Shown: positions 3,933 to 64,000 of the stretch, in pieces
How the letters are laid out: every line of letters starts with the position of its first letter
Position numbering within the stretch: the first letter of the stretch is position 1
From: Vulcanimicrobiota bacterium
Lineage (GTDB): Bacteria > Vulcanimicrobiota > Vulcanimicrobiia > Vulcanimicrobiales > Vulcanimicrobiaceae
Reading direction: 5' to 3'
DNA length: 64,000 bases
Assembly: GCA_963733295.1 (NCBI GenBank)
Contig: CAVTCS010000003.1
Location: forward strand, 2,208,001-2,272,000
Position numbers and translations under genes: made by a program
The notes under the pieces: model-generated
Databases searched by the model: none
What the model saw: only the letters and a program-made list of their open reading frames with translations
Told to the model about the DNA's origin: nothing

Positions 3933-3956
3933 GGTCACGTCAGGGAGATCACACGG

Positions 3957-48830: not shown

Positions 48831-50480
48831 TCAATCACTGGCGCTCGACCCGTAAAGGTGACGCTCACCGGACAAGAGTGCGAGCGCCCGACGTGGCGCC
48901 TCGCGTTCTTCGATGGTGAGGAGGTCCCGCCGCAAGGCGTCGTGCCGCAATGCTAAGCGCTGGAGGTCTTCGGCAAGCCGATCGAACATTGCCGCTTCGC
49001 GCCGCGCGAGCGCTGCAGCGGCCCGCTCATCTCGCATCGCGGCGACGGTTAGTCGGAGATGCGGCAGGCAGAGCGTTGTCAAGTCTACGACTTCACTGAA
49101 GCTCGTCTGGTCCAAGCGCCGAGCCAGCGCTGCGACGTGACGCGATTCCCCGTCCGCTCGCGCCGCGCAAGCCAGGCACGACAGACCGGCGGCTACGAGC
49201 GTGTCGATGGTACCGCGCAGGCTGGACGATGAACCGGTCCATCGGGCGCCAGCTACCAGCGAAGAGGCCAGCCCGCGTAGTAGTTCCGGATAGCCCACGG
49301 CGATCCCGAGCGGCGAGGCGTACGCTTCGTACTGCCAGGTGTGGCTACCACACAGGCCCCGGCGAGCCGCGTGCGCCTTACGGGCGGCGTCGCTCGCACT
49401 AAGCTCGTAAGGAAGGCGCTGGAAAAACGCCGCGAGCTCCTTAGCGACGTTTGCGCAGACGTCGCAGCGCCCAATCGGACGAATCCAGATCGAGTTATCT
49501 TTCTCGGTGCGGTCCCCCAGCTGGGGGGTCAAAGGCGACTCGTTGTCTTTTTGGAGCGCGTCTAGAAGCCGGAAACGCTCCGGACCGAGCGGCGTGCTCG
49601 CGACTAAGTTGGTAACTCGATCGGTCATCTGGCGGAGAAAGGCGTCGATTTTCCGGGCGAGGAGAAACTCGAGCAGGGCGGCCTCAAGCGCCGGAATGCC
49701 GCTCTCCTCAAGGAGCGCAGCTTTAGACCCGAGCTTCGCTTGCAGTCCATCGCGCGCAGAGACTGAAAGAATGGGCGACGTGGCCGCCGTAAGCGTCCCA
49801 AGCCGCTCGGCAACGTATGCTTGCACTTCGTTTCGTTCGCTCTTGGTGACGATGTCGTGTTTGTTGAGCGCAACGAATACTTCGGTCCGAGCAACTCGGG
49901 CCCGTTCTATAAATCGCACCTCGTCCTCGCTTAAGGGGCTGTCGTAGCTCGTTACGAGCAAAAGCGCGTCGGCCTCTGGAAAGAACGCTTCGGTCGTTCG
50001 CGAGTTCTCGACGACGGCGGAACCGAGCCCGGGCGTGTCGATCAACGCGAGTCCACGGCGCAGGAGCTCCGCCGGCAGATAGATATCGGCGCTCACGACG
50101 TTACGCTGGTTGCCTGGATTTCCGCGCTGGGTGATGTAATCGGGGAGCGCCGCGAGCGAAACCTCGCGGGGCGGTCCCCCTTTTTCGTACCGGACGACTA
50201 CGCTCTCGGTTGAGCCGTACAGGACCGTCGTTATCGCGGATGTGACGGGAACGGTACCGACCGGAAGGCGATCGGTGCCGAGAAGCGCGTTCATGAGCGA
50301 CGTCTTCCCGCGGTTGAAGTGCCCGACTAGAACTAGGTTGAACCGATCGGCAGCAAGTCGCGCGATAAGGTCCCGCGCTCGATCGCGTAGCCGCCTATCT
50401 TCATCGGGAAAGAGCAGCGCTGCAGAGCGAATGATTTCCGCGAGTCGAAATTTGCGCTGCTCGTAGGTTTGAAAGTCCAA
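48831..50480 (-). CDS. Bacterial dynamin-like GTPase with C-terminal Cys/His-rich domain
   Basis: G1 GHFNRGKT, G2 VPVTS, G3 DTPG, G4 NKHD; C-terminal CDVC..GLCGSH..CLAC..LCLPH. Confidence 0.88.
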   Translation of the reverse strand: MDFQTYEQRKFRLAEIIRSAALLFPDEDRRLRDRARDLIARLAADRFNLVLVGHFNRGKTSLMNALLGTDRLPVGTVPVTSAITTVLYGSTESVVVRYEKGGPPREVSLAALPDYITQRGNPGNQRNVVSADIYLPAELLRRGLALIDTPGLGSAVVENSRTTEAFFPEADALLLVTSYDSPLSEDEVRFIERARVARTEVFVALNKHDIVTKSERNEVQAYVAERLGTLTAATSPILSVSARDGLQAKLGSKAALLEESGIPALEAALLEFLLARKIDAFLRQMTDRVTNLVASTPLGPERFRLLDALQKDNESPLTPQLGDRTEKDNSIWIRPIGRCDVCANVAKELAAFFQRLPYELSASDAARKAHAARRGLCGSHTWQYEAYASPLGIAVGYPELLRGLASSLVAGARWTGSSSSLRGTIDTLVAAGLSCLACAARADGESRHVAALARRLDQTSFSEVVDLTTLCLPHLRLTVAAMRDERAAAALARREAAMFDRLAEDLQRLALRHDALRRDLLTIEEREAPRRALALLSGERHLYGSSASD

Positions 50481-50497
50481 AGCGATCGGCTTCGCCG

Positions 50498-52003
50498 CTA
50501 CGACGTCGCAGGTTCTACGAAAACTTCTCTGTAGAGATCCGGTCCGTAACTCGTCTCGAGCGGCGCTCCTTGCGCAATCTTGAAGGTACGACGTCCGTCG
50601 TCCAGGCGCTCGGCACGTAAGAAAAGCGCGGATGGTAGGTCTCGCGTCTGTAAGCCATGCGCAAACGCATATTGATGGGTCACGAAAAACACCTTGACAT
50701 CGTTCTCGATCAACGCGTCGACGATCTGACGGGCGATCTCGGAGCCTTCGCGCTCATTTGTTGCAGCGAACGATTCATTGAATAAGATCAGGGAGTTTGC
50801 CCTTAGGCCGTCGACAATGTCGCTCAGTCGGCGAAGCTCCTCATCGAACTTGCCGCTGTTCATTGTGGCGTCTTCTTCGCGCTTGTAGTGAGTGACGACT
50901 CTCTCGCAAACATCTGCACAAAGAGCCTCAGCCGGCGCAAACATCCCGCACTGCATCATCAGTTGTGCGAGACCGACGCTTCGCAGAAACGTCGACTTGC
51001 CACCCTGATTGGCACCGGTAATGATGATGAGAGTCTTGCCGTCAGCAGCGAGATCGTTGCTGACGACGGGACCGTTTGCGCTCAAAGTTAGGCTGACGTC
51101 GTAGAGGCCGGTCGCCGAATAACGCCGTGCCCCGACCGGACAGGGGGAAGGCAAACAGATCGACTCTCCCAGCTCGCTCAGCCTGTCATGCAAATTCAGG
51201 CACCCGACGTAGAACGCGAGCTCGGTTCGCAGCATCTCGAAAAAGCTCGTCAGATGCTCGGCCGACTGCGCAACCGCATTCGCCACGAGGTTGATACCGC
51301 GGTCGTTGAGCTGGGACAATGCACGCGCACCGCTTTCGTCACGGGGGTGAAGTTCGTACGAAAAAGCCGGCGCCTTCGGTGCGAAGAGGCGCGTCAACCA
51401 ATCGCCGTGCGCCGAACTTTGCTTGCGAAGAACATAATCCGTTCCCTTATTGCCTTCGCCTAAGCGCGCACTGAGCAAGATGCCGCGGTCGAATTTCAGT
51501 TCGTTGAGATGGCGCTCGATCGTTGCGAAGTATTCGTCGTCAAGTTCTTCAGCAAGGGAAGCAAAGAGCCGGCAGAAGCCCTCAGATCGGAAGGAGCTCG
51601 CATGCCGATCGACGATCGTCCGCAGCCTCCTCAGCATTGCGACAAGCATCTCCAAGAGGTTGACCGCCCGGTAGAGGATCGAGCGCGGGTGCCGGCCGCC
51701 GTCAAAATAGTGGTTTCGCCGCTTGGATTCCAAGGTCTCGACGGCGAGGTCATAGATCTCCCGGACGACCGCCGGATCGTTCATGCAGTCCTTCAGGATC
51801 TCCTGACGATAGCAGATCGTTTCGATGTCGGTAACGCTCCCGAGAACGGCCCTCTTTACGACTTCAGCCAGCGGCTTGTTGCCACTCGACATTGCGCCGA
51901 AGAGCGCTTCGAGTCCCAAGTCCGCGACGAGCGCATCCGCTTGCTGCGGCAGGTTGGCCCCGAAATCGAAATCCCGGTCCTTGTACATCAAATACGCGTT
52001 CAT
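50498..52003 (-). CDS. Small MutS-related ATPase (domain V, no mismatch-binding domain), copy B
   Basis: ITGANQGGKSTFLRS, HYKREED, GKFDEEL, LFNESFAATNEREG, FVTH. Confidence 0.9.
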   Translation of the reverse strand: MNAYLMYKDRDFDFGANLPQQADALVADLGLEALFGAMSSGNKPLAEVVKRAVLGSVTDIETICYRQEILKDCMNDPAVVREIYDLAVETLESKRRNHYFDGGRHPRSILYRAVNLLEMLVAMLRRLRTIVDRHASSFRSEGFCRLFASLAEELDDEYFATIERHLNELKFDRGILLSARLGEGNKGTDYVLRKQSSAHGDWLTRLFAPKAPAFSYELHPRDESGARALSQLNDRGINLVANAVAQSAEHLTSFFEMLRTELAFYVGCLNLHDRLSELGESICLPSPCPVGARRYSATGLYDVSLTLSANGPVVSNDLAADGKTLIIITGANQGGKSTFLRSVGLAQLMMQCGMFAPAEALCADVCERVVTHYKREEDATMNSGKFDEELRRLSDIVDGLRANSLILFNESFAATNEREGSEIARQIVDALIENDVKVFFVTHQYAFAHGLQTRDLPSALFLRAERLDDGRRTFKIAQGAPLETSYGPDLYREVFVEPATS

Positions 52004-53583
52004 GACTGGGTCCCGGAGGGAAGGCGCGCCTTGAGCTGTTCGTAGGTCAGACCGTACTTCTCCGCGATAGAAAGCGCATAGGCGCGCCCGTCCGCCGGGC
52101 GACGCAGCACCTTGTAGGTTCGCTTCGTCGGATCGGTCGGGTTGACGACGCTCACCATGCTCACCGTCTTCTCATTCAACGACGCGAGCTCGTCGAGGAA
52201 CGTTACGCAGACGCAAATCGCGTCGAGCTCTACGATCTTGTCGAGCACCCGGCGGGCTAGGAACACCGCGTCTTCGAGCGAGGTCGAACTGAAGACTTCG
52301 TTCATGATGATGATGCTGCGCGGAGTCGCGCAATCGAGGATGTCGCGAAACCGGATTAAGTCGTCTTGAAGCTTTCCCCGTAAGGTCTCGACGCGCTCTT
52401 GCTTTTCAAAATGGGTGAAAATGGAGTCGAAAAGAAATAGACGAGCGGAACTTCCGGGAACCGGACAACCGATGCTGGCGAAATGATGCACTTGTCCGAA
52501 GGCACGAGCGAAGGTCGTTTTTCCGCCTTGATTCGGGCCCGATACGACGAGGACACGCTCGGGGCCGTCGAGACGAAAATCGTTGCAGACGATCGGCGCT
52601 GACTCATTAAAGAGCTTCGTCGCCAAAGCGAGATCGAACGCCGCTCGGTCGTACACGTCCTTGTCCCGGGCCGATACTGTCGGGTAACAAAACGCGAGGC
52701 CGGCTTTCTTGAATCGCTCTGCGTAACCAAGGTATGCCATGTAAAACTGAATCTCGCGATCGAAGCGCCCGACGAGCGCGTCCGCGAACTCGCGGTTCGC
52801 GGTACAAAATTCGTCTAATCGTCGGAAAGGCTCCGGATTGAACCGAGCGACGAACCCGAGGATGATTTCTTCGACGTGATTCATGTCGACGGATTCCGTG
52901 AACGCGCACAAGTAGTTCTTTGCGGCGCTGCGCCGAAATTTGGCGAACGTAGCTGCGATTTCGTCGCTGTAGTTAGGCTCGGAGTCGTAATTTCGAACCT
53001 CGAATCGGCTGCCCTTGATGTGGATCGAGTACGCAAGCGCTTGCAAGTCGCGTGAAAGCGCGCCCACCTGCGCAGCGAGCCCGGTAAAGCGCTCCGATGC
53101 TAGGTACTCGCTTAAATAGCCGTGGAACGACCGTAGGCCGCGTGAGGTGAGGTTAAGCCCCCGCAAGCCCTCTTCGAGCGCGCGCACGGCGCTGAGATAC
53201 GTCGCTATGGCGCGCAGACACCAGGCCTCTTTGTTATACGTGTAGTGCAGTTTCTCGGCTTGAGCGAGCTGTTGCCGCATCAGGCGCATGCCGTCCGCGA
53301 ACGATACGATGCACGCGAAGGCGGCCTCTTCCTCGAGATCGCGCATGACCTCTTGCCGGTAGAGAATAGCGTCGAGGTCCCTGAGGGAATCGTAGAAGAA
53401 CGGCCTTAGATCGTACTCATCCTTCCCGTGCGTTATCGCGTCGAGGATTTGATCGAGGTTGAGGTCGTGAAAGTACTCAGGGGTGTGCCCGCGCACTGAT
53501 CGTTCCCTCTCGCCGCCCCGTTCGTAAAGGATGCTCTCGAACGTCTGCGCACGAGCGCCGTCCGGAAGAGTCTCAGTCGCCAT
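52000..53583 (-). CDS. Small MutS-related ATPase (domain V, no mismatch-binding domain), copy A
   Basis: DLNLDQI, VSGPNQGGKTTFAR, THFEKQE, GKLQDDL, IMNEVFSST, VTFLDEL; ATGA overlap with copy B. Confidence 0.9.
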   Translation of the reverse strand: MATETLPDGARAQTFESILYERGGERERSVRGHTPEYFHDLNLDQILDAITHGKDEYDLRPFFYDSLRDLDAILYRQEVMRDLEEEAAFACIVSFADGMRLMRQQLAQAEKLHYTYNKEAWCLRAIATYLSAVRALEEGLRGLNLTSRGLRSFHGYLSEYLASERFTGLAAQVGALSRDLQALAYSIHIKGSRFEVRNYDSEPNYSDEIAATFAKFRRSAAKNYLCAFTESVDMNHVEEIILGFVARFNPEPFRRLDEFCTANREFADALVGRFDREIQFYMAYLGYAERFKKAGLAFCYPTVSARDKDVYDRAAFDLALATKLFNESAPIVCNDFRLDGPERVLVVSGPNQGGKTTFARAFGQVHHFASIGCPVPGSSARLFLFDSIFTHFEKQERVETLRGKLQDDLIRFRDILDCATPRSIIIMNEVFSSTSLEDAVFLARRVLDKIVELDAICVCVTFLDELASLNEKTVSMVSVVNPTDPTKRTYKVLRRPADGRAYALSIAEKYGLTYEQLKARLPSGTQS

Positions 53584-55291
53584 GCGAAGCGCTCAGTACG
53601 TTGGGCGACGAACACGTTCCCGAAGTTTGCATGCTCGCTGCGTGCGCGAACTGCCGCAACCGATCCGCGGCCTGCTCGAGTTCGCTCGAGCGCCGGGCGA
53701 TTGCTTCAGCTTCGTCTGCGCCTTCCACCGCCTGCTGGAGCGCACGCCCCGCGTCGGCTCGCGCGCGCTCCAGAGAGGCCCCGACTTGCTGCGCGAGGGT
53801 CGCGTATCCATCTCGAATCGCTTGATTCGCGCGGTAGCGGATCCGGCCCGCGCGCCGATCGAGCTGCGCCTCGAGCTCGCTCCGCAGGCGGCGCGCCAGA
53901 AGTGTCGCCCGGACCGGCTGCGGAAGCAAGCCGTCGACGGCCCGCGCGACGAGCTCGGCTCCGGTCGTGGCTTGCTCGTCGGCGTATTCGAAGCGAAGTG
54001 CCGGGAGCTCAAAGGCCAATTCGGGCGGCGCGAGCGCGCCGAGCCCTAGGCCGGCAAGACCTTCAGCAATCGTGCTGCGTTCGAGGTCGACGGTGCGCGC
54101 GACGACGCGCTCCATGTTTCGCTGCATTCGCGCCTGGAGTTCGCGACGGACCTCTTCGACCCACGCGGTCGCAGCGGAGCCAACACCGTCGGCAATGCCC
54201 TGGCGATACGCTAACAGGTCGCCGTGCTCTACAGCGGACCGCAGCCGCTGCTCCAGGGATACGAGCGCTTCACGCTTGCGGTCCTCGAGCCGCTGCTCGA
54301 TAAGGCGCAGATCCTCGCGTGCCGCTCGATCGAGCGTGTCGACGATTTCGCCTGCGCGTCGCGGGAGTTCACTCTCGAAGGTTGCAAAGCGCTCTGCGAG
54401 CGCCGCTCGACGCTCGAGCGGCAAACGCAGCGCTTCGCGCTCGATCAGGAGAGAACGGAGCAACCACGCGGCGTCGCGTGTAGCTTTTCGGCGCAGCGAT
54501 CGCTCAAAGACTTCACGACCGTGCGCTTCGACGAAATCTCGAAACGTTGCCACGAAGTCGCCGAGTCCCTGGCCTCTTGTCGCACTCAGCGGGAAAATGC
54601 GAACGTCGCCATCCTCGCGCGCTCCGGCCAGGGTTTTGCGCGTGAACTCTATCAGTGGTTCTCGCTCCTTGTCATTGACGATTTGATCGACTTTGTTCAG
54701 CACGATGAAGAGGCGCTCCGAGGCATCGAGCACCTTACGCGCAAAGGCGAGTTCGGCCTCACCGATGGGTGGCTCGGCGCCGACCACGAGAATAGCGAGA
54801 TCGGCCCGCGTTAGCGTTTCTAGCGCAGCCCCGGTGTTGTGTGCGTACGTCGAGGCGATGCCGGGGGAGTCGATCATTGCGACCCCAGCGAGGATGGGAG
54901 CGGGCACGGTAACGGCGGCGCTCCGAACCAGCAGGCGATTTTCCGGATTGCCCTGTTCGGTGACGTAGCGCTTTAGTTCGGGGGGCGAGATCTCGAGCGG
55001 CGGCCGCGCTTCATCGAGAAACTCGATCGTTACGCGCAATGGACCGAAGCGGACGACGGTCGGGATCGCCGTAACCGGCAACATGCCGGTTGGCAGCAGG
55101 TCCGTCCCCAAAAGCGCGTTGATGAAGGTGCTCTTGCCGCGTTTGAACTGACCAGCCACGACCACGGTCAGCTCGCGCCTGCACTCCTCGTCTCGCAGCC
55201 GCTCGATCGCCGAAATCGCCGACGGGGAGCCGAACCGGCGAGCCAGTCCCAGCAGTTCTTCCGAGTCGGAATTGCCGTTACGGCCGTTCAC
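53573..55291 (-). CDS. Bacterial dynamin-like GTPase with helical stalk
   Basis: G1 GQFKRGKS, G2 LPVTA, G3 DSPG, G4 NKVD; probable GTG start 55291 (ORF open to 55396). Confidence 0.88.
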   Translation of the reverse strand: MNGRNGNSDSEELLGLARRFGSPSAISAIERLRDEECRRELTVVVAGQFKRGKSTFINALLGTDLLPTGMLPVTAIPTVVRFGPLRVTIEFLDEARPPLEISPPELKRYVTEQGNPENRLLVRSAAVTVPAPILAGVAMIDSPGIASTYAHNTGAALETLTRADLAILVVGAEPPIGEAELAFARKVLDASERLFIVLNKVDQIVNDKEREPLIEFTRKTLAGAREDGDVRIFPLSATRGQGLGDFVATFRDFVEAHGREVFERSLRRKATRDAAWLLRSLLIEREALRLPLERRAALAERFATFESELPRRAGEIVDTLDRAAREDLRLIEQRLEDRKREALVSLEQRLRSAVEHGDLLAYRQGIADGVGSAATAWVEEVRRELQARMQRNMERVVARTVDLERSTIAEGLAGLGLGALAPPELAFELPALRFEYADEQATTGAELVARAVDGLLPQPVRATLLARRLRSELEAQLDRRAGRIRYRANQAIRDGYATLAQQVGASLERARADAGRALQQAVEGADEAEAIARRSSELEQAADRLRQFAHAASMQTSGTCSSPNVLSASHGD

Positions 55292-55371
55292 GCCGTGGCT
55301 CGCAAAACTTCCGCGCGGGCGCTCGACGCGCGATGGCGGCTTCGGGAGGGTCGACGATAGTCGTTGTACAC
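55288..55371 (-). CDS. Putative leader peptide (MYNDYRRPSRSRHRASSARAEVLRATA)
   Basis: GGAG SD 9 nt upstream of GTG; TGA overlaps the dynamin GTG (GTGA). Confidence 0.4.
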   Translation of the reverse strand: MYNDYRRPSRSRHRASSARAEVLRATA

Positions 55372-55397
55372 TGCCACGGACTCCAGGTTGCTGCACT

Positions 55398-55443
55398 AGG
55401 AGTCATCAGCCGTTTCCGGCGGTCGTGGCGAACTCCATCGCCC
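55398..55443 (-). ncRNA. Fluoride riboswitch (crcB motif) no. 1, upstream of the dynamin/MutS operon
   Basis: GGGCGATGGAGTTCGCCACGACCGCCGGAAACGGCTGATGACTCCT: P1 GGCGA/TCGCC, pseudoknot GGAGT/ACTCC, P2 GCCG-GAAA-CGGC, conserved GATGG and CTGATG. Confidence 0.92.
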
Positions 55444-55685
55444 ACAGGATGGTTCTGCGGTGACTCCCGAAATCATCTCATATGAGCTGCCCGGTCCGGA
55501 GGGCGCGACGTCGCGAGGGCTGACGAAGCAGAGAAGGGACACGGGACGGCGTTCGCACGCGACACGAAAGGGTTACGCGCGAAATGTCGCGCTATCCGAC
55601 ATCGCGACTTCTGGCGATCTTGTTGCTCCAGCGCTGCAACTTTTCGTCGTAGGAAGCCAACCGCTCCCTGCAGTATAGGTATCTC

Positions 55686-55731
55686 GGGCGATGGAGTTCG
55701 CCACAACCGCCGGAAACGGCTGATGACTCCT
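55686..55731 (+). ncRNA. Fluoride riboswitch no. 2
   Basis: GGGCGATGGAGTTCGCCACAACCGCCGGAAACGGCTGATGACTCCT; followed by CTCCTC/GAGGAG SD-sequestering hairpin; TATAGG -10-like box just upstream. Confidence 0.93.
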
Positions 55732-55752
55732 CGGAGGGTGAGGAGCATTCTT

Positions 55753-55908: not shown

Positions 55909-55927
55909 ACTCTCGCGGCATTAAGGC

Positions 55928-56329
55928 ATGGGTACTCTGAGAAGATGGTGGCGCTTCGTCACCAGCGGCGTGATCGCGGAGATGCCCAGTCATGGGACGC
56001 CGGACGAGCTCGAGGCGCTGCGCACGACCAATCGCGACCTCCAGGAGCGCGTAGCTTGGCTGGATGGGCGCCTTAAGGAGGTCGTCGAGCGGTTGTATTC
56101 CATCGAACAGCAATATTCGGTCGAACACTTCCAACTCACCGAATCGCAACGCGACCTTCGAGATGAGCGAATGCGCCTGGCCGCAGCGCGCGCCGAGCGA
56201 ACGATCATTCTCTCCCGCGCTGGAGACCTGCAAGCACGAATCCGCGACTTGAAGGGGCGTCTTGCATCGCACGAGACCGTGGAAGCCTCGTTCTTCGACG
56301 ATGCACCCATCGTAGACGATTCAAAGTGA
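55928..56329 (+). CDS. Hypothetical coiled-coil protein
   Basis: TAAGG before ATG; amphipathic N-terminus, long Leu/Glu/Arg heptad region. Confidence 0.7.
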   Translation: MGTLRRWWRFVTSGVIAEMPSHGTPDELEALRTTNRDLQERVAWLDGRLKEVVERLYSIEQQYSVEHFQLTESQRDLRDERMRLAAARAERTIILSRAGDLQARIRDLKGRLASHETVEASFFDDAPIVDDSK

Positions 56330-56338
56330 GTCGATGAG

Positions 56339-57025
56339 ATGAGCGACAAGCCTGCCGCAACCGTCGGCGCGCTCTTCGACGACCTGACGCGGTCGGAACA
56401 CAAGAGGTCAGGCGCGGCGGCCGAGGATTTGGCAGCTGCAAAGGAACGGCTCTTCGGCGGCTTCCGCGAAGCGCAGCGTGCGCTGAATAGGGGATGCGAT
56501 TCCGACATTAGGTCGTCGCCGACCCTCCTGACGCGCCCGCTCGTCGTCGCGCGCACTTGCTTAGAAAACGAGTTGCTAGGAACGAGCACGCTCGCCGATA
56601 AGGCGCTCAGAAGCCACCTCTTGTTTGCGGGTTGCCAGGACATCGTCGCGTGTTGTACCCGCAGTGTGCGTGACAATGCCGATGTGCGTTTCCGGGCGCG
56701 TTTCCGGATGTTCGCGGAGGCTGTCCACGAACTCGAGTGCGAGTTCGCCGAGAAAGCACGAGTTGTGGAACCGGAAGGCGCTTCGCGCATAAAGATGCCG
56801 CGACGCATCGCCGTCCCGAGAGTCTGCCTTGATGATCTCCCAATGCCGCGACAGCCCGACGACTCGTCCGCCGCCTCGATAAATGCATGGGCGAGCGATT
56901 TGACTATGCTGCTGACCGACCGCCTTCGCGAGGCCGTCGAGGACGCACGCCGAGAGGCTGTCCGGCGTTCAACGCGCAGCGTCGCTCGTATCGTCGTCCG
57001 CGCGGCCCGGGCTCTGCACCGCTAG
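56339..57025 (+). CDS. Hypothetical helical protein
   Basis: 228-aa ORF 9 nt downstream of previous gene, ending before riboswitch 3. Confidence 0.6.
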   Translation: MSDKPAATVGALFDDLTRSEHKRSGAAAEDLAAAKERLFGGFREAQRALNRGCDSDIRSSPTLLTRPLVVARTCLENELLGTSTLADKALRSHLLFAGCQDIVACCTRSVRDNADVRFRARFRMFAEAVHELECEFAEKARVVEPEGASRIKMPRRIAVPRVCLDDLPMPRQPDDSSAASINAWASDLTMLLTDRLREAVEDARREAVRRSTRSVARIVVRAARALHR

Positions 57026-57086
57026 CTCGCGCGGCCATGAACCGCGACGCGGGAAGAGCCGCTTGGCCAACGAAGATACGAGGGAA

Positions 57087-57130
57087 GGGCGATGGGGCTC
57101 GCCCGAACCGCCGTGAGGCTGATGGCTCCT
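57087..57130 (+). ncRNA. Fluoride riboswitch no. 3, upstream of the metallophosphoesterase
   Basis: GGGCGATGGGGCTCGCCCGAACCGCCGTGAGGCTGATGGCTCCT: P1 GGGCGA/TCGCCC, pseudoknot GGGGC/GCTCC, P2 GCC-GTGA-GGC; GCTCC/GGAGC hairpin hides the SD. Confidence 0.9.
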
Positions 57131-57153
57131 GGTCGATCGAACCGGAGCGCGCT

Positions 57154-57906
57154 ATGAAGAGCCTCATTATCGCCGACGTTCACGCAAATTGGGCGGCCCT
57201 CGAAGCGCTGCCCGCTGCGGATCTTGTCGTCTGCGCAGGCGACATGGTAACTTTTGGGCCGCAGCCCGGCGCAGTCATCGATGCTCTCGCCAAGATCGGC
57301 GCTCGCTGTGTGCGCGGGGACGAAGACGATGCGGTTGCGCGCAATTTGCGGCGTGAAGCAGCGCCGGGGCTCGAGTCCGCCGCCGACGAAACCCGGGTCT
57401 GGACGCGCTCGGTCCTCACGAAAAACCAGATGCGCTGGTTGGGCGAACTCCCGTTTGAAATCGAGGTGGAGGCCGGCAGTGTGCGGCTGGCTGCCACCCA
57501 CGCGTATCCCGGCGTCATCAACCGCTACCTCCGCCCGACGCGCGAGGAACTGGAGCGTGTCGCCCGAGCATTCCCCCGAGCGAACATCGTCGTAGTTGGC
57601 CACACGCATCGCAGTGGCATTTGGCAAGTCGGCGGAACGACGATCTTGATGCCGGGAAGCGTCGGGCAGTCAAGCCATGGCGGGCATGCATCGTTTGCTC
57701 AGATCGAAGGCAGCACCGTTACCCTTCGTGAGCTTCCGTACGACGTCGACAGAACGATCGAACAGATTCGCGCCACTCCTTGGAGCGCAAGCGCAAAGGA
57801 GAGCTGCATACGCGCCCTCCAACTTGGCGCCCCGCGGCCGTACGAATCCGTTCTGCCGAAGGATGTCGAGCGTCGCTTGGCCGTAGGTCCCGCGCGCGGT
57901 AAGTGA
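57154..57906 (+). CDS. Calcineurin-like metallophosphoesterase
   Basis: ADVHAN, AGDMV, RGDED (in place of GNHD), THA, VGHTH, PGSVGQ. Confidence 0.88.
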   Translation: MKSLIIADVHANWAALEALPAADLVVCAGDMVTFGPQPGAVIDALAKIGARCVRGDEDDAVARNLRREAAPGLESAADETRVWTRSVLTKNQMRWLGELPFEIEVEAGSVRLAATHAYPGVINRYLRPTREELERVARAFPRANIVVVGHTHRSGIWQVGGTTILMPGSVGQSSHGGHASFAQIEGSTVTLRELPYDVDRTIEQIRATPWSASAKESCIRALQLGAPRPYESVLPKDVERRLAVGPARGK

Positions 57907-57930
57907 CCGCCAATCGCAGACTCAGGAAGG

Positions 57931-58290
57931 ATGGCAACCTTGGCCCAAGTCCACGAGAGTTCAAAGGCGGATCCAGGACCCGAAGCAACGCGCGCCCGAA
58001 TTCGCTCGCTCGCGGCTTTTGTTGCTTTGGTGGCGGGTGCATTCGTGCCGGCGCCTCGTGGCCAATTCCTACCATCTTCCTGGTCTTGCTGCTGTTTCTT
58101 GAGCCGATTCGAGCGAAGACCGGGTACGTCACACTTTTGATCGGCTGCATCGTAGCCGCAATCTTACCTAGCATCGGCTGGGCGATCGCTACTCACCATC
58201 TTGCGTTTTAATGCCGTGCTTGTTGCTTCCGGGCTGATCCTTGCGAGCTTAGCGCGGCTGGCCGCGCCTCGGCAAGCTGTGTCGAAGTAG
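57931..58290 (+). pseudogene. Small multi-TM membrane protein apparently broken by two compensating frameshifts
   Basis: AGGAAGG before ATG 57931; hydrophobic segments continue in the 57903 frame from ~58050 and return to the original frame at the TTTT run 58206-58209, ending TAG 58290. Confidence 0.45.
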
Positions 58291-58361
58291 CTCAAGCGCC
58301 CATGATCCCTGCCAGGAGGGTCGCCAAAGCCCATGTCTAAGAGCAGCGAAAAATTCAAAGC

Positions 58362-58411
58362 CGCGATGGAGCTCGCGTTAAGCCCACAACAACTGGGATG
58401 ATGGCTCCTAC
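58362..58411 (+). ncRNA. Fluoride riboswitch no. 4, upstream of the Ehr operon
   Basis: CGCGATGGAGCTCGCGTTAAGCCCACAACAACTGGGATGATGGCTCCTAC: P1 CGCGA/TCGCG, pseudoknot GGAGC/GCTCC, P2 CCCA/TGGG, 3' CCTAC. Confidence 0.85.
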
Positions 58412-58448
58412 TCAGACCTTCCGAGTGCGGAGCCGGCTTTGTTTCTTT
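58403..58448 (+). terminator. Intrinsic terminator forming the expression platform of riboswitch 4
   Basis: GGCTCC-TACTC...GAGTG-C-GGAGCC stem uses the aptamer 3' strand; followed by GGC TTTGTTTCTTT. Confidence 0.7.
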
Positions 58449-58487
58449 CAGCACACCTAAATCGAAACCAATTGCGGCGGGCGAGCT

Positions 58488-59438
58488 TTGGCGCAATCGA
58501 TCGCGCTTAACGCTGCGCAGTTGGCGTTCGTTCTACTCCTCTCACCGCTCTTTAGCGGGCTCTTAACCCGATGCAAAGAGATCGTTCAGTCGAAGCGTGG
58601 GCCGAGCGTCTTTCAGCCGTATCGCGACTTGCGCAAACTCTTGGGAAAAGACGAACGAATACCGGATGAGAGCACCTGGATCTTCCGAGCAGCGCCGTAT
58701 TTCGTCTTCGTCGTTCCGTTGATCGTTACGTTGCTGATCCCGGTCCTCACCGATTTTCCGCTGTTCTTCGCATTCGCCGGCGACATGCTGGCCGTTGGTT
58801 TTATTCTCGCTATCTCGGGATTTTTCTTCACGTTGGCGGCGATCGATGGAGGCAACCCCTACGGGGCAATGGGAGCGAGCCGAACCCGTATGGTTGGGTT
58901 CTTGGCCGAGCCGGTCATCATCATCGTGCTCTTCACCGTGTCGTTCGTCGCGAATTCGACAATTCCGTACATCGTGCAGCAACATTGGATTCACCCAATC
59001 GCGAACTTCTTCGCGCCATCGCACATTCTGTTGCTGATAGCATTTTTCATGATCATTCTCGCGGAGACCGGAAAGCTTCCAGTCGACAACCCAAGCGGCC
59101 ACTTTGAGCTCGCCATGATCGACGAGTCGAAGGCCCTGGAATTCTCGGGCCGCGGGGCGGCCTTAATCAAATACGGCGGCTACATGAAGTTCACGGTTTT
59201 GGCGATCGTTTTTCTCAACGTGCTGGTAGCGCCATGGGGCCTCGCTCAACATGCCTCGCCGCTAGCCGTGCTAGTTGCGGGAGGGGCAGTCGCCTTGAAG
59301 ATCTTGGCGCTCGTAGGAGCAATCGTCATCGTCGAGTCGTCGCTTGCCAAACTCCGGCTCTTTCGTATCTCGGAATTCCTTGGCGCCGCTTTCGTCATTT
59401 CGGTCACGGCGATGGTAACGCAGCTGCTGAGCTTTTAG
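58488..59438 (+). CDS. hyfC: Hydrogenase-4/Ehr membrane subunit HyfC (NuoH-like)
   Basis: RGPSVFQPYRDLRKLLGK, GAMGASR, LAETGKLPVDNP, ELAMIDE, AKLRLFR. Confidence 0.9.
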   Translation: MAQSIALNAAQLAFVLLLSPLFSGLLTRCKEIVQSKRGPSVFQPYRDLRKLLGKDERIPDESTWIFRAAPYFVFVVPLIVTLLIPVLTDFPLFFAFAGDMLAVGFILAISGFFFTLAAIDGGNPYGAMGASRTRMVGFLAEPVIIIVLFTVSFVANSTIPYIVQQHWIHPIANFFAPSHILLLIAFFMIILAETGKLPVDNPSGHFELAMIDESKALEFSGRGAALIKYGGYMKFTVLAIVFLNVLVAPWGLAQHASPLAVLVAGGAVALKILALVGAIVIVESSLAKLRLFRISEFLGAAFVISVTAMVTQLLSF

Positions 59439-59458
59439 GGCGGCGGGGATACGGAAGC

Positions 59459-60124
59459 ATGACGCTGCTCTCGGAACTCAACGCGCTCGTTCTGGGTCTC
59501 TTCATCGTCAGTACGATCGCGATGACGGTCACCCGGCAGATCGGCGCGTGCATTCAGGTCTTCGTCGCGCAGTCGCTACTGCTGGCCGCGTCGGCCTTCT
59601 TGCTCGGCGCCGTATCGCTTTCGTGGCACCTGATTGCGCTCGGGTGCATCACGGTGGTCGGTAAGGCGATCGCGATCCCCTGGTTGCTGCGCGCACTGCT
59701 GCCGAACGAGGTCCATCGCACGCGCGAGCTTTCTCAGACGATCGACGTACCGACCGTGCTGCTCATCGCACTCGGACTCACGCTGTTAGGCTACGGATTC
59801 GCCGCCCACATCGCGCACGCCGCGCCGAATCTCTCGCCTGGTAACGTCTCGACGGGGGTTGCGGGCTTGCTCGTTGGCCTGCTGCTCTTGGCCGTCCGAA
59901 GCGAGGCGGTTCCGCAATTGCTCGGCATCTTAGCGATGGAAAACGGCGCGTTCCTCGCCGGCATCGCGATTGCATCGGACTTTCCGCTCATCGCGGAATT
60001 CGCAATCGCCTTCGACGTCCCGTTGCTGACGTTCATCGTCGCACTCTTAGCGCGTGCTGCGTACCGGCAGATCGGCACGACGGAGGTCGGTGGGCTTTCG
60101 ACGTTGCGCGAGCGCGTCCGATGA
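59459..60124 (+). CDS. hyfE: Hydrogenase-4/Ehr membrane subunit HyfE
   Basis: QSLLL, KAIAIPWLL, QLLGILAMENG, PLIAEFAIAFDV. Confidence 0.88.
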   Translation: MTLLSELNALVLGLFIVSTIAMTVTRQIGACIQVFVAQSLLLAASAFLLGAVSLSWHLIALGCITVVGKAIAIPWLLRALLPNEVHRTRELSQTIDVPTVLLIALGLTLLGYGFAAHIAHAAPNLSPGNVSTGVAGLLVGLLLLAVRSEAVPQLLGILAMENGAFLAGIAIASDFPLIAEFAIAFDVPLLTFIVALLARAAYRQIGTTEVGGLSTLRERVR

Positions 60125-61554
60125 TCTTCGCGATTCCCGGCGCTGCGCTGTTGGCAGCTTTATGGTGTGCGCTCCCCCGCAGCGGCCGGGCAGCGCCGCC
60201 GGTGACATTCGCCGGAGCGATAGCTGCGGTCTGCATCTCGCTGCGCGTGCTGTGGACGCTGCGCGCCGGCGGCACGGCCACAATCGTTCCCGGGTGGCTC
60301 GAAATCGATCCGCTGGCGGCCTTGCTCCTCGTACTGATCGCATTCGTTTACGCGACCGCGGCGCTCTTTTCGTGGGGTTACCTGGCCGATGAAACCGGGG
60401 GGCGTGGCCGCCTTTACTACGCCAATTTCAACCTGTTCACTTTCTCGATGCTCAGTATCCCACTCCTGACCGAGATGGGACTCGTTTGGATCTTCGTCGA
60501 GCTCACGACGCTCCTCTCGATCTTGCTGGTCAACTTTGCCGGTACTACCGAGTCGCTCGAAGCGGCTTGGAAGTACATGGTGCTCACGCTGCTCGGCGCG
60601 ACGGTCGCGGTCTTGGGCGTACTCGTGCTCTTTTGGGCGTTGCACGCTGCAGGTAGCACGGAGTTCAACTGGAACGGCTTGCGTGCTGCGGCGCCGCGCA
60701 TGCCGCACGCTTTGCTGGGTTTTGCCTTCGTGCTGATACTGGTCGGGTATGGCGCGAAGATCGGACTCGTCCCCCTGCACACCTGGCTTCCGGATGCGCA
60801 CAGTCAAGCGCCCTCACCGGTTTGCGCGATGTTGTCCGGTATCGAGACGAGCGTCGTTCTCTACGTGATTCTGCGGCTGCGCAACGTCTTTGCCGCGGAC
60901 CCGTCGCTCCACGTCGGAGCGTGGTTTGTGGCGGTCGGGCTCGTGTCGGCCGGCGCTGCCGCCCTGCTCGTCGTGCAGACGCACGATTACAAGCGTCTTT
61001 TTGCCTTTTCGACTGTGGAGCACATGGGGATCATTCTGACCTCCGCCGGAATCTTCACGCCGGCCGGCGACATCGCCGCGGTCTGGCAGTTGCTCGCTCA
61101 TAGCGTTACGAAATCATTTTGCTTCTACGCTGCTGGAGCGACGCTGATCGCGACCGGCACCCGTGACATCGTCGCGATTCGCGGCTTACTAGGGTCGAAC
61201 CGGATCGCTGCCGGGGCGCTCTTGGTCGGCGCTCTCGCAATCGGCGGGGCACCGCCGTTCGCCGTCTTTCTCAGCGAACTTGCCATCCTGCGCGCCGGTC
61301 TGTCGGCGCACGCATACGTGCTAGTCGCGCTCCTAGCGCTCTTCATCGTCGTTGCGTTTTTCGGATTGCTCTGGCACGTGATGCGGATGCTTGCGGGGCC
61401 GCCGAGCGAGAACCCGCAAGGCAAGCGCGTTCCCGCGACCTGCATCTGGGCATTGTGCCTGGCGGGGCTCCCGGTCGTGGTCTTTGGCATTTGGCTCCCC
61501 GAGGCATTGGGACGGGCGATTGAGAACGCGGCGCGCGCGCTAGGGACCTCGTAG
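60121..61554 (+). CDS. hyfF: Hydrogenase-4/Ehr antiporter-like subunit HyfF
   Basis: WIFVELTT, SLEAAWKY, GYGAKIGLVPLHTWLPDAHSQAP, YKRLFAFSTVEHMG. Confidence 0.9.
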   Translation: MIFAIPGAALLAALWCALPRSGRAAPPVTFAGAIAAVCISLRVLWTLRAGGTATIVPGWLEIDPLAALLLVLIAFVYATAALFSWGYLADETGGRGRLYYANFNLFTFSMLSIPLLTEMGLVWIFVELTTLLSILLVNFAGTTESLEAAWKYMVLTLLGATVAVLGVLVLFWALHAAGSTEFNWNGLRAAAPRMPHALLGFAFVLILVGYGAKIGLVPLHTWLPDAHSQAPSPVCAMLSGIETSVVLYVILRLRNVFAADPSLHVGAWFVAVGLVSAGAAALLVVQTHDYKRLFAFSTVEHMGIILTSAGIFTPAGDIAAVWQLLAHSVTKSFCFYAAGATLIATGTRDIVAIRGLLGSNRIAAGALLVGALAIGGAPPFAVFLSELAILRAGLSAHAYVLVALLALFIVVAFFGLLWHVMRMLAGPPSENPQGKRVPATCIWALCLAGLPVVVFGIWLPEALGRAIENAARALGTS

Positions 61555-61556
61555 GC

Positions 61557-63116
61557 GTGCTGACCGAAACACTCGAGACGCTACGCTCGGTCTGGCCTGC
61601 AGCCTCGTGGAAAGCGGAGGGTGACTCGGTCGCCGCGGCGATTCCGGTCGAGCATTTGTGCGAGCTGGCGGGGCGTCTTCGCGCGCGGGAATGGCGACTC
61701 GGTACGATCGTAGCGACCGACCGCGGAGCGGCGCTTGAACTGCGCTACTGCTTCTATGCAACTCGCCATCCCGGGTGGGCCCAGCTCGTCGTCGCCGTCG
61801 ATCCGCTAGAACGAACCCTGCCGAGCATCACGTCCACGGTCATCGCCGCCGATTGGTTCGAACGCGAAATCGAAGACCTGTTCTCGATCCGCTTTACGGA
61901 GCACCCACGCTTGGGTGATTTCGTTCTGCACAACGATCAATGGGCCGAAGACATGGGGCTCATGCGCCCGGGCGTTGAGTCGACCAGCGATGTACGGGAG
62001 GAACGGCGCGAATGGCGGCCGATGCGCGTGCTCGAGGAAGAGGGCGCCTTCGTGATGCCGATCGGACCGGTCTATTCCGGAGAGGCTGAGTCCGCGCTCT
62101 TCCTGTTGGAAACGGTGGGCGAAGATGTCGTACGCGCCATTCCTCGGCTGTTTTTCAAATACCGCGCCATCGAGAAACTGGCCGAAGGGCGGAGCGTGCG
62201 GGACGTTCTGCTGCTCGCCGAGCGCTGCGCCGGAACGAGCGCGATCGGGAACGGCCTTGCGTATTGTCACGCCGTCGAGCGCGCGCTGGGGCTTGAGGTG
62301 CCTCCACGCGCTGTCGCCTTGCGCGCGTTTTTCGCTGAGCTCGAGCGCGTGCGTCACCATATGACCTCCGTGCGAGAGGTGTGTACCTCGACGTCGCTGA
62401 CCGTCGCGGCGAGTCAGGCATTGTGGCTCGAGGAACAGCTGCTGCGACTCTGCGGCGAGTTGTGCGCACACCGCTATCTGTTCGGCGTGCTCGATGTCGG
62501 CGGTCTCATGCACGATTACGAGGCGGCGGCGCTCGAGCGTGCCGTGGCCGCGGTAGAAGCGATCTGTGTCCAGATCGACGCGCTGCGCGATGCCCTGGAG
62601 AATACGAGCAGCTTTCTGGATCGCATCGAGCAAGTCGGCGTCGTGAGCGAACCCGCCGCGCGGGCATTCGAGCTCGTGGGTCCGTTCGCGCGCGCAAGCG
62701 GAGTCTCGGCGGATATGCGAGCGATCCAACCTTACGGACCCTACGCGTCGATACCGTTCGACGTACCAACGGAGGTCGAGGGCGACGGGTATGCGCGCCT
62801 GCGCGTGCTGTTTGCGGAGATCAGGCAGTCGCTGCCGATCGCACGGGCGCTCGCGAGTGACTTGCCCGCGGGTTCGATTCGAACAGAAGCCGTAATGCGC
62901 GCCGGCAATGGTCTGGGCTGGACCGAAGCTCCGCGCGGCGCATCGGTGCAGTGGGCTGATGTGACCGCGGAGGGGAGCGTGCGCCGTTATCGCCTTACCC
63001 CGCCGTCGTTCCGCAACTGGCACGGTTTCCACGTCGCAACCGAAGAATTCGCCTTCCAGGACTTTCCGATCGTGCTCGCCACCCTCGACCTATCCGTTGC
63101 GGAGAACGATCGATGA
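61557..63116 (+). CDS. Ehr large subunit (HyfG/HycE-like NuoC+NuoD fusion) lacking Ni-binding cysteines
   Basis: WFEREIEDLF, HP, IGPV, ELERVRHH, EAPRG, PSFRNW, DFPIV; ERCAGTS and TLDLSVAENDR replace RxCGxC and DPCxxC. Confidence 0.9.
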   Translation: MLTETLETLRSVWPAASWKAEGDSVAAAIPVEHLCELAGRLRAREWRLGTIVATDRGAALELRYCFYATRHPGWAQLVVAVDPLERTLPSITSTVIAADWFEREIEDLFSIRFTEHPRLGDFVLHNDQWAEDMGLMRPGVESTSDVREERREWRPMRVLEEEGAFVMPIGPVYSGEAESALFLLETVGEDVVRAIPRLFFKYRAIEKLAEGRSVRDVLLLAERCAGTSAIGNGLAYCHAVERALGLEVPPRAVALRAFFAELERVRHHMTSVREVCTSTSLTVAASQALWLEEQLLRLCGELCAHRYLFGVLDVGGLMHDYEAAALERAVAAVEAICVQIDALRDALENTSSFLDRIEQVGVVSEPAARAFELVGPFARASGVSADMRAIQPYGPYASIPFDVPTEVEGDGYARLRVLFAEIRQSLPIARALASDLPAGSIRTEAVMRAGNGLGWTEAPRGASVQWADVTAEGSVRRYRLTPPSFRNWHGFHVATEEFAFQDFPIVLATLDLSVAENDR

Positions 63117-63850
63117 ACTGGTTCTTGCGCGGCTTGCGCGCCGGCGTGCGGACCGAGCGGGAGCCCGTGGGCCGCGACGCGGCGCTTTCCCTATCGCCTG
63201 GCCTTCCGCGTGCGACGCTGCATCCATCGACCCAAGCAGCCACCGACATTGCAAAGGTTTGCCCGACCGGCGCAATCGTTGCGGAAGAATCGGTCGCTCG
63301 CGTTCTCCAAGACCGCTGCGTTGAATGTATGCGATGCAAGGCGGCGGGGTCGAGCGCGCAAGGCTGGGACCAAAACGTCCGCGTCGCACACGCTCCCGAA
63401 GAGCGGGGATTCGATCCGCTCGATGGCAGCTTCAAGAGATCGCTCCACGTGCGCATCGTCGACGCCGGCGACTGCGGGTCGTGTTTGAACGAACTGGCGC
63501 AACTCAACGGTCCATCGTACAACCTCCACCGGTTCGGGATCTTTATTACGCCGACTCCGCGTCAGGCAGACGTGTTGCTCGTCGTCGGACCGGTGACGCG
63601 ACAGATGCGCGGCCCTCTCCGGGCCGCCTACGATGCAATGCCGGACCCGAAGCGCGTCGTTGCGGTCGGCGCGTGCGCCGCGAGCGGCGGAATCTTTGGT
63701 CCCTCCGTCATGTGTGCCGCAGGGGTGGCCGACGCGGTCCCGGTCGACCTCGTGGTCCCAGGATGCCCCCCGCCGCCGTTCGCGATCGTCCACGCGCTGC
63801 GCGCCGTGTGTGGGCAGCAACCACTCAATCTCGCGAGCGATCTGGCATGA
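63113..63850 (+). CDS. Ehr small subunit (HyfI/NuoB-like) with N-terminal ferredoxin remnant
   Basis: CPTGAI...CVECMRC; DAGDCGSCLNE, PRQADVLLVVGPVT, VGAC, PGCPP. Confidence 0.9.
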   Translation: MNWFLRGLRAGVRTEREPVGRDAALSLSPGLPRATLHPSTQAATDIAKVCPTGAIVAEESVARVLQDRCVECMRCKAAGSSAQGWDQNVRVAHAPEERGFDPLDGSFKRSLHVRIVDAGDCGSCLNELAQLNGPSYNLHRFGIFITPTPRQADVLLVVGPVTRQMRGPLRAAYDAMPDPKRVVAVGACAASGGIFGPSVMCAAGVADAVPVDLVVPGCPPPPFAIVHALRAVCGQQPLNLASDLA

Positions 63851-64000
63851 ACCAGTGGGAACTCGCCGTGACCCTCGCAGCCGTGGCACTTCCCATCGTC
63901 GGCGCGCTCGTGTGCCTCGTTTTGCCGGAACGAGCCGCCGTGCGCATTCTCACGGCAACCTGTTCCTGTGCTGCCGCTCTATCGCTTACGGCCGGCATCG
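63847..64000 (+). CDS. Membrane protein, probably HyfB-like antiporter subunit (3' truncated by window edge)
   Basis: ATGA overlap; hydrophobic MNQWELAVTLAAVALPIVGALVCLVLP...; HyfB is the subunit not yet seen in the operon. Confidence 0.5.
   Translation, partial: MNQWELAVTLAAVALPIVGALVCLVLPERAAVRILTATCSCAAALSLTAGI

Follow-up and report, generated by a model that had tools for sequence, protein, structure and literature searches.

A candidate fluoride-response island in a Vulcanimicrobiota genome carries four riboswitches and a Ni-free Ehr complex

We analyzed a 64,000-nt stretch of a Vulcanimicrobiota genome (G000:C3:2208001-2272000; hereafter the window, on which features are numbered unless stated otherwise), in which a block of genes headed by fluoride riboswitches ends in an operon for an Ehr (Ech/energy-converting hydrogenase-related) complex. 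The G000 assembly comprises 3,442,526 bases in 17 contigs and is 97.15% complete and not closed. Scanning of the whole window with cmscan at Rfam gathering thresholds (34 bits for the fluoride riboswitch model RF01734) revealed exactly four matches of 39.7–49.6 bits, with E-values of 1e-10 to 2e-7; a genome-wide search at E ≤ 0.001 added none to these four, which agrees with the four matches that a first-pass annotation of this DNA had expected from the Rfam model. Riboswitch A (55390–55451, minus strand; 45.6 bits, full model 1–64) heads an operon of dynamin-like GTPases (DLPs) and MutS4-like ATPases. The other three lie on the plus strand: riboswitch B (aptamer core 55687–55731, with an overlapping terminator-like hairpin to 55745; 49.6 bits) precedes genes for a small coiled-coil protein and a helical protein, riboswitch C (57079–57138; 48.0 bits) heads a phosphoesterase gene, and riboswitch D (aptamer 58353–58417, element to 58449; 39.7 bits) heads the Ehr operon. 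Each of the four thus lies above the cut-off and upstream of a same-strand gene set, and the claim of the first-pass annotation that every unit starts with a fluoride aptamer holds. Its list of modules (dynamins, MutS-like pair, phosphoesterase and Ehr) missed a fifth, the coiled-coil and helical proteins behind the switch at 55687.

The RF01734 alignments of the window copies contain the two short helices and the GAUGG...CUGAUG.CUCCU core, with one non-canonical pair in P2 of riboswitch D (the copy at 58353); 16 core columns are invariant among 29 riboswitch sequences of the window's phylum. In each of the four aptamers, the 3' GNCUCC strand has a competing GGAGNC partner downstream. In riboswitch B this takes the form of a 7-bp terminator-like hairpin (55727–55745) followed by a CAUUCUUGUG tail, and this fold (−18.3 kcal/mol, z −2.8) is the only one of the four that clearly beats shuffled sequences. 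Riboswitch D has a GGCUCC...GGAGCC terminator-like hairpin (58402–58435) followed by the U-rich GCUUUGUUUCUUUC (z −1.6). Riboswitch C appears to be of the Shine-Dalgarno sequestering type: its GCUCC pairs in the minimum-free-energy fold with GGAGC at 57144–57148, 6 nt before the ATG at 57154. The 3' GACUCC strand of riboswitch A can alternatively pair with GGAGUC ~15 nt downstream. Since all units are headed by genuine fluoride aptamers, the assignment of the block as a fluoride regulon is supported.

Riboswitch D is followed by six plus-strand genes in one operon, which encode a subunit set of the group-4 hydrogenase/complex-I type. These are a NuoH/HyfC-like membrane subunit (58488–59438; 316 aa, Pfam NADHdh 109.9 bits), a HyfE-like membrane subunit (59459–60124; ~221 aa, with a sub-cut-off match to the NCBIfam 'hydrogenase 4 membrane subunit' at E 9.5e-15 and a weak match to Oxidored_q2), a HyfF-like antiporter-like subunit (60121–61554; 477 aa, Proton_antipo_M 165 bits, with models of hydrogenase 4 subunit F as its top NCBIfam matches, again sub-cut-off), a large subunit that is a NuoC-NuoD/HycE-like fusion (61557–63116; 519 aa, with Complex1_49kDa, Complex1_30kDa and NiFeSe_Hases), a NuoB/HycG-like small subunit (63113–63850; 245 aa, Oxidored_q6 91.8 bits, with an N-terminal ferredoxin-like CxxCxxC...CP motif) and a HyfB-like antiporter subunit (~711 aa, Proton_antipo_M 137.7 bits), which begins at 63847 and runs on for 1,982 nt after the window end, to position 2982 of locus L005. 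The same kinds of subunits (HyfC/E/F/B-, HycE- and HycG-like) make up the E. coli formate hydrogenlyase (Hyc, 7Z0S) and hydrogenase-4 (Hyf); in contrast to these, all NCBIfam hydrogenase-4 scores of the window complex are below cut-offs. Unlike respiratory complex I, the operon has no NADH-input module. No NuoEFG-like, formate dehydrogenase or HycB/F-type genes were found in it, and G000 contains a separate nuo cluster near C3:490-504 kb.

A search of one-genome-per-species contigs with a profile of 18 large-subunit homologues gave 499 matching stretches, and the Ehr comparisons use the best 80 of these loci (49–76% identity). All genomes compared here are metagenome-assembled genomes (MAGs), so related genomes are non-independent observations and calls of absence hinge on completeness. 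The closest solved relative of the window large subunit is E. coli HycE (7z0s_E; E 9e-49), whose four NiFe cysteines align with A225, S228, S513 and E516; the HycE motifs RvCGiCg and DPCySC correspond to RcAGtSa and DLSvAE in the window protein. Among the 80 loci, the first position is A, N or S (C in 2), the second T or S (C in 1), the third S (80/80) and the fourth E (80/80), and the C-terminal NiFe cysteine pair is found in none. In a further difference from Hyc and Hyf, besides the replacement of all four cysteines, HypD (PF01924) gave no match in G000, in a search that was positive in 4 of 14 control genomes. The Ni-free character proposed by the first-pass annotation is thereby borne out. 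Analysis of the small subunit revealed that the ferredoxin-like cysteines 50, 69, 72 and 75 are kept in 74–77 of 77 loci, and the NuoB-type cysteines 121, 124 and 188 in 78–79 loci. On sequence grounds, the complex is a Ni-free descendant of group-4 hydrogenase/complex I that has kept its iron-sulfur motifs; having lost the NiFe site, it therefore cannot make H2. It resembles in this respect the Ehr complexes, reportedly first defined by Marreiros et al. in 2013, which have a group-4-hydrogenase-like subunit set without NiFe ligands. Ehr complexes are called of unknown function in a 2025 comparative-genomics paper (PMC12342949).

Two variations on the operon were seen among the relatives. Locus L030 carries, at 198–5000 on the plus strand and directly upstream of its riboswitch-Ehr operon, a second and more distant hydrogenase/complex-I-like set with a 30% identical large subunit. 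In many carriers outside Eremiobacterota, the six-gene core is followed by one or two additional genes for HyfB-like antiporter subunits, ~2–7 kb downstream of the large-subunit gene (L049, L052, L057, L063, L065, L074, L078, L080, L086, L088, L092, L093, L095, L096 and L102), some of these loci with a further riboswitch match nearby.

By record titles, the 80 Ehr loci span about eight phyla and come mostly from soil, bog, palsa or peat MAGs, including Eremiobacterota/Vulcanimicrobiota, Acidobacteriota, Verrucomicrobiota, several Proteobacteria classes, Planctomycetota, Actinomycetes, Gemmatimonadales and a Parachlamydiaceae bin; tblastn revealed the identical gene order H-E-F-L-S-B in all of them. 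Our own riboswitch covariance model (R1), built from the 29 riboswitches of the window's phylum and giving rough E-values, yielded 132 matches in 65 of the 80 loci. R1 under-scored distant riboswitches, and loci without an R1 match were rescanned with Rfam. Linkage was counted in the 63 loci whose large-subunit gene is preceded by 4.2 kb of DNA or more, the other 17 being left out. A same-strand R1 match was located 3,071–5,123 nt upstream of the large-subunit gene, ahead of the first operon gene, in 53 of these loci. Among the remaining 10, nine carry at that place an RF01734 match on the same strand that exceeds the Rfam cut-off, which gives a total of 62/63 with L053 as the sole exception. 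All four weak R1 matches that were rechecked (18–21 bits) scored 38–50 bits with Rfam, and the switch was also seen in 6 of the 17 loci with shorter upstream DNA. L048 and L098 exhibit the order riboswitch-crcB-Ehr, as a single unit. In a sample of 151 genomes of the window's phylum, drawn evenly and including G000 (Ehr large subunit called at E ≤ 1e-60), all seven Ehr genomes (G000, G015, G024, G029, G033, G069 and G136) have riboswitches; the riboswitch-Ehr spacing is ~3.1 kb in six of them (in G033 via the copy L043), and in G029 a contig break stands in the way of this measurement. These counts indicate that this Ni-free Ehr clade is almost always fluoride-switched. Its place behind a fluoride riboswitch in 62/63 loci may set it apart from the Ehr complexes described before, such as those of Nitrospira and Geobacter.

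The first-pass annotation had noted that no Fluc/CrcB or CLC-F exporter is present in the window, and this extends to the whole 97.15%-complete genome: six-frame searches of G000 with PF02537 (CrcB) and PF00654 (CLC) gave no match, the same searches being positive in 11 of 14 and 12 of 14 control genomes, respectively, and tblastn of a relative's CrcB against G000 gave a best E of 0.28. Inspection of 19 kb beyond position 64000, where crcB or eriC might have followed, revealed no exporter gene. The missing exporter is nevertheless not a trait of the system. Among 50 further Ehr carriers, picked for spread from 75 distinct-genome loci and with genome completeness that is not established, 32 have CrcB, 42 some CLC and 3 the antiporter described below, and 4 have neither CrcB nor CLC; Ehr as a general substitute for an exporter was rejected on the count of CrcB. 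Within the phylum sample, four of the seven Ehr genomes (G000, G015, G029 and G033) lack CrcB. CLC-F proteins are marked by the signatures GNNLI/GMGLI, GREGT/V and GEVTP (PMC11139923); none of eight CLC genes from relatives (G015, G029, G033, G069, G136 and G137) has any of these motifs, and their assignment as CLC-F was dropped. With no CrcB and no CLC gene that has a CLC-F signature, four of the seven Ehr genomes are therefore without a recognized fluoride exporter.

Comparison of the Ehr genomes with their relatives revealed a second type of membrane machinery behind the fluoride riboswitch. The phylum sample contains 63 genomes with the riboswitch, 83 with CrcB, 65 with any CLC, 7 with Ehr and 39 with a ~388-aa Na_H_Exchanger protein (PF00999), and in 38 of these last the antiporter gene immediately follows a riboswitch, the exception being a fragment in G125. 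None of the seven Ehr genomes carries it, against 39 of all 151 genomes; G000 has no riboswitch-linked Na+/H+ antiporter, and none of its five other PF00999 genes is near a switch. In the window's family, the 40 riboswitch-bearing genomes divide into 28 with the antiporter, 6 with Ehr, 6 with neither and none with both (hypergeometric P 2.4e-4, uncorrected for kinship). The two alternate even within genera: in g4, G024 and G069 have Ehr versus 13 antiporter carriers, and in g21 G136 has Ehr versus the antiporter in G115. The 17 other family genomes with a riboswitch but neither CrcB nor CLC all carry the riboswitch-linked antiporter (15 called by Pfam and 2, G043 and G099, by coordinates; one of the 17 has just a weak riboswitch match, and one a sub-threshold CLC match), and G000 alone in this exporter-less set carries the Ehr island instead. 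Since Ehr and the antiporter never co-occur in the phylum sample, this distribution suggests that they have a similar ion-handling role. Ehr shares with CPA (PF00999) and Mrp-type antiporters that it would be membrane cation/proton machinery under fluoride control, and its F and B subunits are, like MrpA/D, members of the Proton_antipo_M family. In the window's phylum it stands where relatives have the riboswitch-linked antiporter, from which it differs by its six subunits and a peripheral iron-sulfur arm.

The ~388-aa antiporter clade (e.g. L007:6825-7991, minus strand) is the sole riboswitch-controlled gene in the 17 genomes without CrcB and CLC, and it is a candidate exporter-independent fluoride response in its own right. 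In five family genomes that are 97–100% complete (G047, G051, G081, G085 and G097), no riboswitch, CrcB, CLC or fluoride-linked antiporter was detected, and some members of the window's family appear to be without a recognizable fluoride system.

The minus-strand operon behind riboswitch A begins with DLP A (53573–55396; Dynamin_N 83 bits against a cut-off of 27, residues 78–235), whose maximal open reading frame has 607 aa and whose start codon is ambiguous, similarity to relatives starting at about residue 75 of that frame. It is followed by a MutS4A-like ATPase (52000–53583; 527 aa, Pfam MutS_V 71.2 bits) that has no other MutS domain and scores far below the NCBIfam cut-offs for MutS1 and MutS2, by a MutS4B-like ATPase (50498–52003; 501 aa, MutS_V 73.3 bits) whose start overlaps the MutS4A-like stop by 4 nt, and by DLP B (48831–50480; 549 aa, Dynamin_N 90.4 bits). 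The P-loops are GQFKRGKST in DLP A and GHFNRGKTS in DLP B. The C-terminal Cys-rich domain of DLP B (residues ~330–549) contains two CxxC...LCxxH modules, and these 220 aa bear a resemblance, and no more, to DUF6062 (PF19538; 15.9 bits, E 0.0089, below the cut-off of 27). Bacterial dynamin-like proteins include DynA, LeoA and IniA, and the window DLPs resemble them in having a Dynamin_N GTPase domain and a helical stalk, with two paralogues in the operon. They differ in the fusion of DLP B to its Cys-rich, weakly DUF6062-like domain and in the fluoride riboswitch ahead of both, and their short form of about 550–610 aa distinguishes them from the other DLP of G000 (~900 aa). MutS4A and MutS4B have been described as named, unstudied and patchily distributed adjacent genes that encode the ATPase domain only and have overlapping stop and start codons (Lin, Nei and Ma 2007, PMC2190696). 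The window pair is likened to them by architecture and not by a tree, being also adjacent, with a C-terminal MutS ATPase domain only and a stop/start overlap; it differs in that this pair and 18 of 19 related loci are riboswitch-headed, often beside DLPs, a feature that the available text of that paper does not mention.

On the plus strand, riboswitch B is followed by cc133 (55928–56329; 133 aa), a small coiled-coil protein with no Pfam family, and by unk228 (56339–57025; 228 aa), a helical protein with no Pfam or NCBIfam family. All 149 relatives of cc133 are unnamed and without Pfam family; they share a conserved LYELQxHYSSEHFEL motif with an invariant Y..Y..EHF.L core. The protein is predicted to form one long helix (residues 25–124), and in the ESM Atlas it matches just generic coiled-coil clusters. 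A fluoride riboswitch lies on the same strand within 700 nt of 7 of the 10 cc133 genes found near the Ehr loci. For unk228, the predicted model is all-helical (pLDDT 85); when this model was compared with PDB structures by Foldseek, nothing reached E ≤ 0.001, the top entries being designed helical bundles, ClyA and a dynamin-like stalk, and the ESM Atlas gave no usable match. cc133 is usually the first gene behind a fluoride riboswitch, and its partners vary between unk228, the MutS4 pair and the Ehr operon (L026, L029, L031, L033-L035, L041, L053, L055 and L068). A YfcE-like metallophosphoesterase (57154–57906, plus strand; 250 aa, Pfam Metallophos_2 69.5 bits) starts 16 nt past aptamer C and scores 43.3 bits against the NCBIfam YfcE subfamily, below the cut-off of 56. 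The short reading frame orf102 (57903–58211) was considered as a hidden small exporter and rejected; it belongs to no family and has one weak opposite-strand match in the 80 loci.

To compare the modules across genomes, island proteins were searched by tblastn within ±10 kb of the 80 Ehr loci. The MutS4 pair was found near 20 loci, DLPs near 23–24 (DLP A at ≥40% coverage near 16), cc133 near 10, unk228 near 11, the phosphoesterase near 7–9, CrcB near 15 and the antiporter near 1. Of the 19 MutS4 pairs, 18 have a riboswitch on their own strand no more than 2.6 kb upstream, and 3 of the 7 phosphoesterase genes have one within 600 nt; in L056 and L097 a DLP is located between the riboswitch and the Ehr genes. 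In the phylum sample, MutS4B-like genes (E ≤ 1e-40) occur in 7 of 151 genomes (G000, G029, G033, G069, G113, G136 and G137), each in a multi-riboswitch island, and Ehr and MutS4B-like genes occur together in 5 genomes versus ~0.3 expected, all 5 in such islands. The short DLP type (frames of 560–650 aa, E ≤ 1e-29) was found in 11 genomes and is shared with Ehr in 5. Conversely, G113 and G137 lack Ehr despite their MutS4 and DLP islands, and G024 and G015 have Ehr without a MutS4B-like gene. The modules are separable and are best read as independent members of one regulon, not as parts of one machine; their separate riboswitches and divergent strands point to independent units. The cross-genome comparison proposed by the first-pass annotation thus shows modules that travel together above chance and that are each riboswitch-headed in other phyla (Ehr 62/63, MutS4 pair 18/19). 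Its view of the genes as one functional module stands insofar as they co-occur above chance in the phylum (5 vs ~0.3), but not as an obligate integrated system, the MutS4 pair being present at only 20 of 80 Ehr loci. The mechanism that it put forward, F−/H+ handling by the antiporter-like Ehr subunits together with membrane remodeling by the NTPases, stands as a candidate.

Taken together, we interpret the block as a fluoride-stress island in which four switches would release four independent modules and Ehr would serve as an ion-translocating device, and assign this interpretation a probability of about 0.6. Cytoplasmic fluoride build-up would turn on four riboswitches, apparently by keeping a terminator from forming in two of them and by exposing the ribosome-binding site in the other two. 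Ehr is most likely an H+ or Na+/H+ translocating device, which would offset the proton load and the loss of membrane energy caused by HF entry at low external pH; this is also the role commonly ascribed to the riboswitch-linked Na+/H+ antiporter found in relatives instead of Ehr. The phosphoesterase would fit the known pattern of extra phosphoryl-transfer enzymes under fluoride, and that the GTPase/ATPase module serves membrane repair or remodeling is a guess. We infer the fluoride induction, the ion pumping and the physiological effects alike.

Several observations weigh against this interpretation. Among 22 sequencing runs listed in a search for reads of this DNA, none was an RNA run containing the sequence. 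The folds of riboswitches C and A are no better than those of shuffled sequence (z 0.15 and −0.47), so the four window riboswitches are read as probable ON switches by analogy with characterized fluoride riboswitches. Only membership of its protein family points to ion translocation by Ehr. The large subunit has no NiFe cysteines and, in addition, has Gly226 at the position of what we take to be the quinone-binding tyrosine of the complex-I 49-kDa subunit (the Tyr of RLDYVS, in a comparison with the fungal protein); with both the NiFe cysteines and this presumed quinone tyrosine missing, its pocket matches neither hydrogenase nor complex-I chemistry. The fourth NuoB-type cysteine of the small subunit, Cys218 (PGCPP), is Cys in just 25 of 78 loci and is replaced by N in 31, Q in 9 and H in 9, and most of the Ehr clade may have a modified distal cluster or none at all. 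The exclusivity of Ehr and antiporter is not absolute, 3 of the 50 other Ehr carriers having both, and it comes from related genomes that represent perhaps six independent lineages. Finally, outward proton pumping would widen the pH gradient and raise fluoride trapping in a cell without exporter; in exporter-less genomes the direction would therefore have to be inward, collapsing the pH gradient, or the activity another one. Where CrcB is co-transcribed, a proton-moving partner makes sense, because HF that enters and then exits as F− through the channel deposits its proton in the cell, at the expense of membrane potential. This reasoning draws on the published properties of Fluc (PMC11139923).

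Of the alternatives, a defense independent of exporters is possible but doubtful. Ehr, or the antiporter in relatives, would in this case keep fluoride out by moving F−/HF outward or by importing H+ against cations, the latter collapsing the pH gradient in which fluoride is trapped. G000 keeps four fluoride switches without CrcB, CLC or a riboswitch-linked antiporter, which fits such a defense, as do the four of seven phylum Ehr genomes without CrcB, the eight CLC genes without CLC-F motifs, the 4 of 50 further Ehr carriers without both CrcB and CLC, and the 17 exporter-less relatives with the antiporter as sole riboswitch-controlled gene. It is difficult to reconcile with CrcB in 32 of the 50 other carriers and within 10 kb of 15 of the 80 Ehr operons, sometimes between the riboswitch and Ehr; in these genomes Ehr would work beside a channel and would not replace it. 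We know of no precedent for anion transport in the protein superfamily of Ehr, and the absences bear on genomes that are 97% complete and not closed (G000) or of completeness not established (the 50 carriers). We consider it unlikely that Ehr is a redox enzyme for energy back-up, which would re-establish membrane energization or redox balance once enolase, pyrophosphatase and ATPases are blocked by fluoride. The iron-sulfur ligand motifs of the small subunit, conserved across the clade, argue for electron transfer, and a review reports shifts of metabolism in the presence of fluoride and names 'formate hydrogen lyase' among the enzymes often associated with the riboswitch (PMC11139923). However, no donor module (formate dehydrogenase or NuoEFG-like) was found here or, within the tblastn set, in the 80 loci, the catalytic pocket is without hydrogenase and presumably without quinone-site residues, and the complementary distribution with a simple antiporter fits ion handling better.

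The coupling of DLPs, MutS4 pair, phosphoesterase and Ehr as a single integrated machine is highly improbable. All of them are encoded within a single 17-kb block and each is behind a fluoride switch of its own, five of the seven phylum Ehr genomes have a MutS4B-like gene and five a short DLP, and L056 and L097 even place a DLP between riboswitch and Ehr; yet 60 of the 80 Ehr loci have no MutS4 pair and ~57 no DLP within 10 kb, MutS4/DLP islands without Ehr (G113, G137) and Ehr without MutS4B-like genes (G024, G015) both exist, and separate riboswitches on divergent strands speak for separate units. As Ehr island and riboswitch-linked antiporter replace each other in the family, the hypotheses narrow to ion handling, with the fluoride-stress island of independent modules as our preferred interpretation.

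Part of this gene association had been noted before, as the first-pass annotation suspected: the crcB motif was reported upstream of 'mutS' and 'formate hydrogen lyase' genes in 2010 (Weinberg et al. 2010, PMC2864571). A 2024 review places formate hydrogen lyase among the commonest riboswitch-associated enzymes and Na+/H+ antiporters as the next-most common associated class after exporters (PMC11139923). The window agrees with this published regulon in that its aptamers pass the RF01734 model and lie in 5' leaders with overlapping terminator or Shine-Dalgarno-sequestering stems, and in that its genes include the 'mutS', 'formate hydrogen lyase' and phosphoesterase classes. It differs in the lack of an exporter in G000, in the four switches in one island, in a 'formate hydrogen lyase' that is a Ni-free Ehr-type complex, and in DLPs, coiled-coil and helical proteins, which are not named in the searchable texts. 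In a literature search that left subscription papers and supplements outside its scope, we found no paper that identifies the riboswitch-linked 'hydrogen lyase' as a Ni-free Ehr, and none that links dynamin-like GTPases to the fluoride riboswitch.

What the window contributes is the presence of all modules in one island, in a genome without known exporter, together with the Ehr-or-antiporter pattern. Ehr complexes, MutS4 ATPases and short DLPs are widespread and without known function, and the near-universal switch ahead of one Ehr clade supplies an inducer and a phenotype to test; the label 'formate hydrogen lyase' for this riboswitch-linked gene class is corrected to Ni-free Ehr. With four fluoride switches and no known exporter, G000 is a useful natural case. 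A defense independent of exporters in soil bacteria that lack Fluc and CLC-F, if true, would provide the orphan Ehr clade with a first physiological role and constitute a third kind of fluoride-resistance device. Fluoride tolerance is relevant to the engineering of organofluorine degradation, according to the review (PMC11139923).

The genes past the Ehr operon include a GNAT acetyltransferase, a Y-family polymerase and other unrelated genes; the polymerase (ImpB/DinB-type) stands together with an AP-endonuclease-2-fold gene ~3 kb past the operon end (L005:5376-7951, minus strand), with no riboswitch ahead. Upstream, the island is flanked by a plus-strand gene for a UvrD-like helicase (46524–48827), likewise without riboswitch ahead of it.

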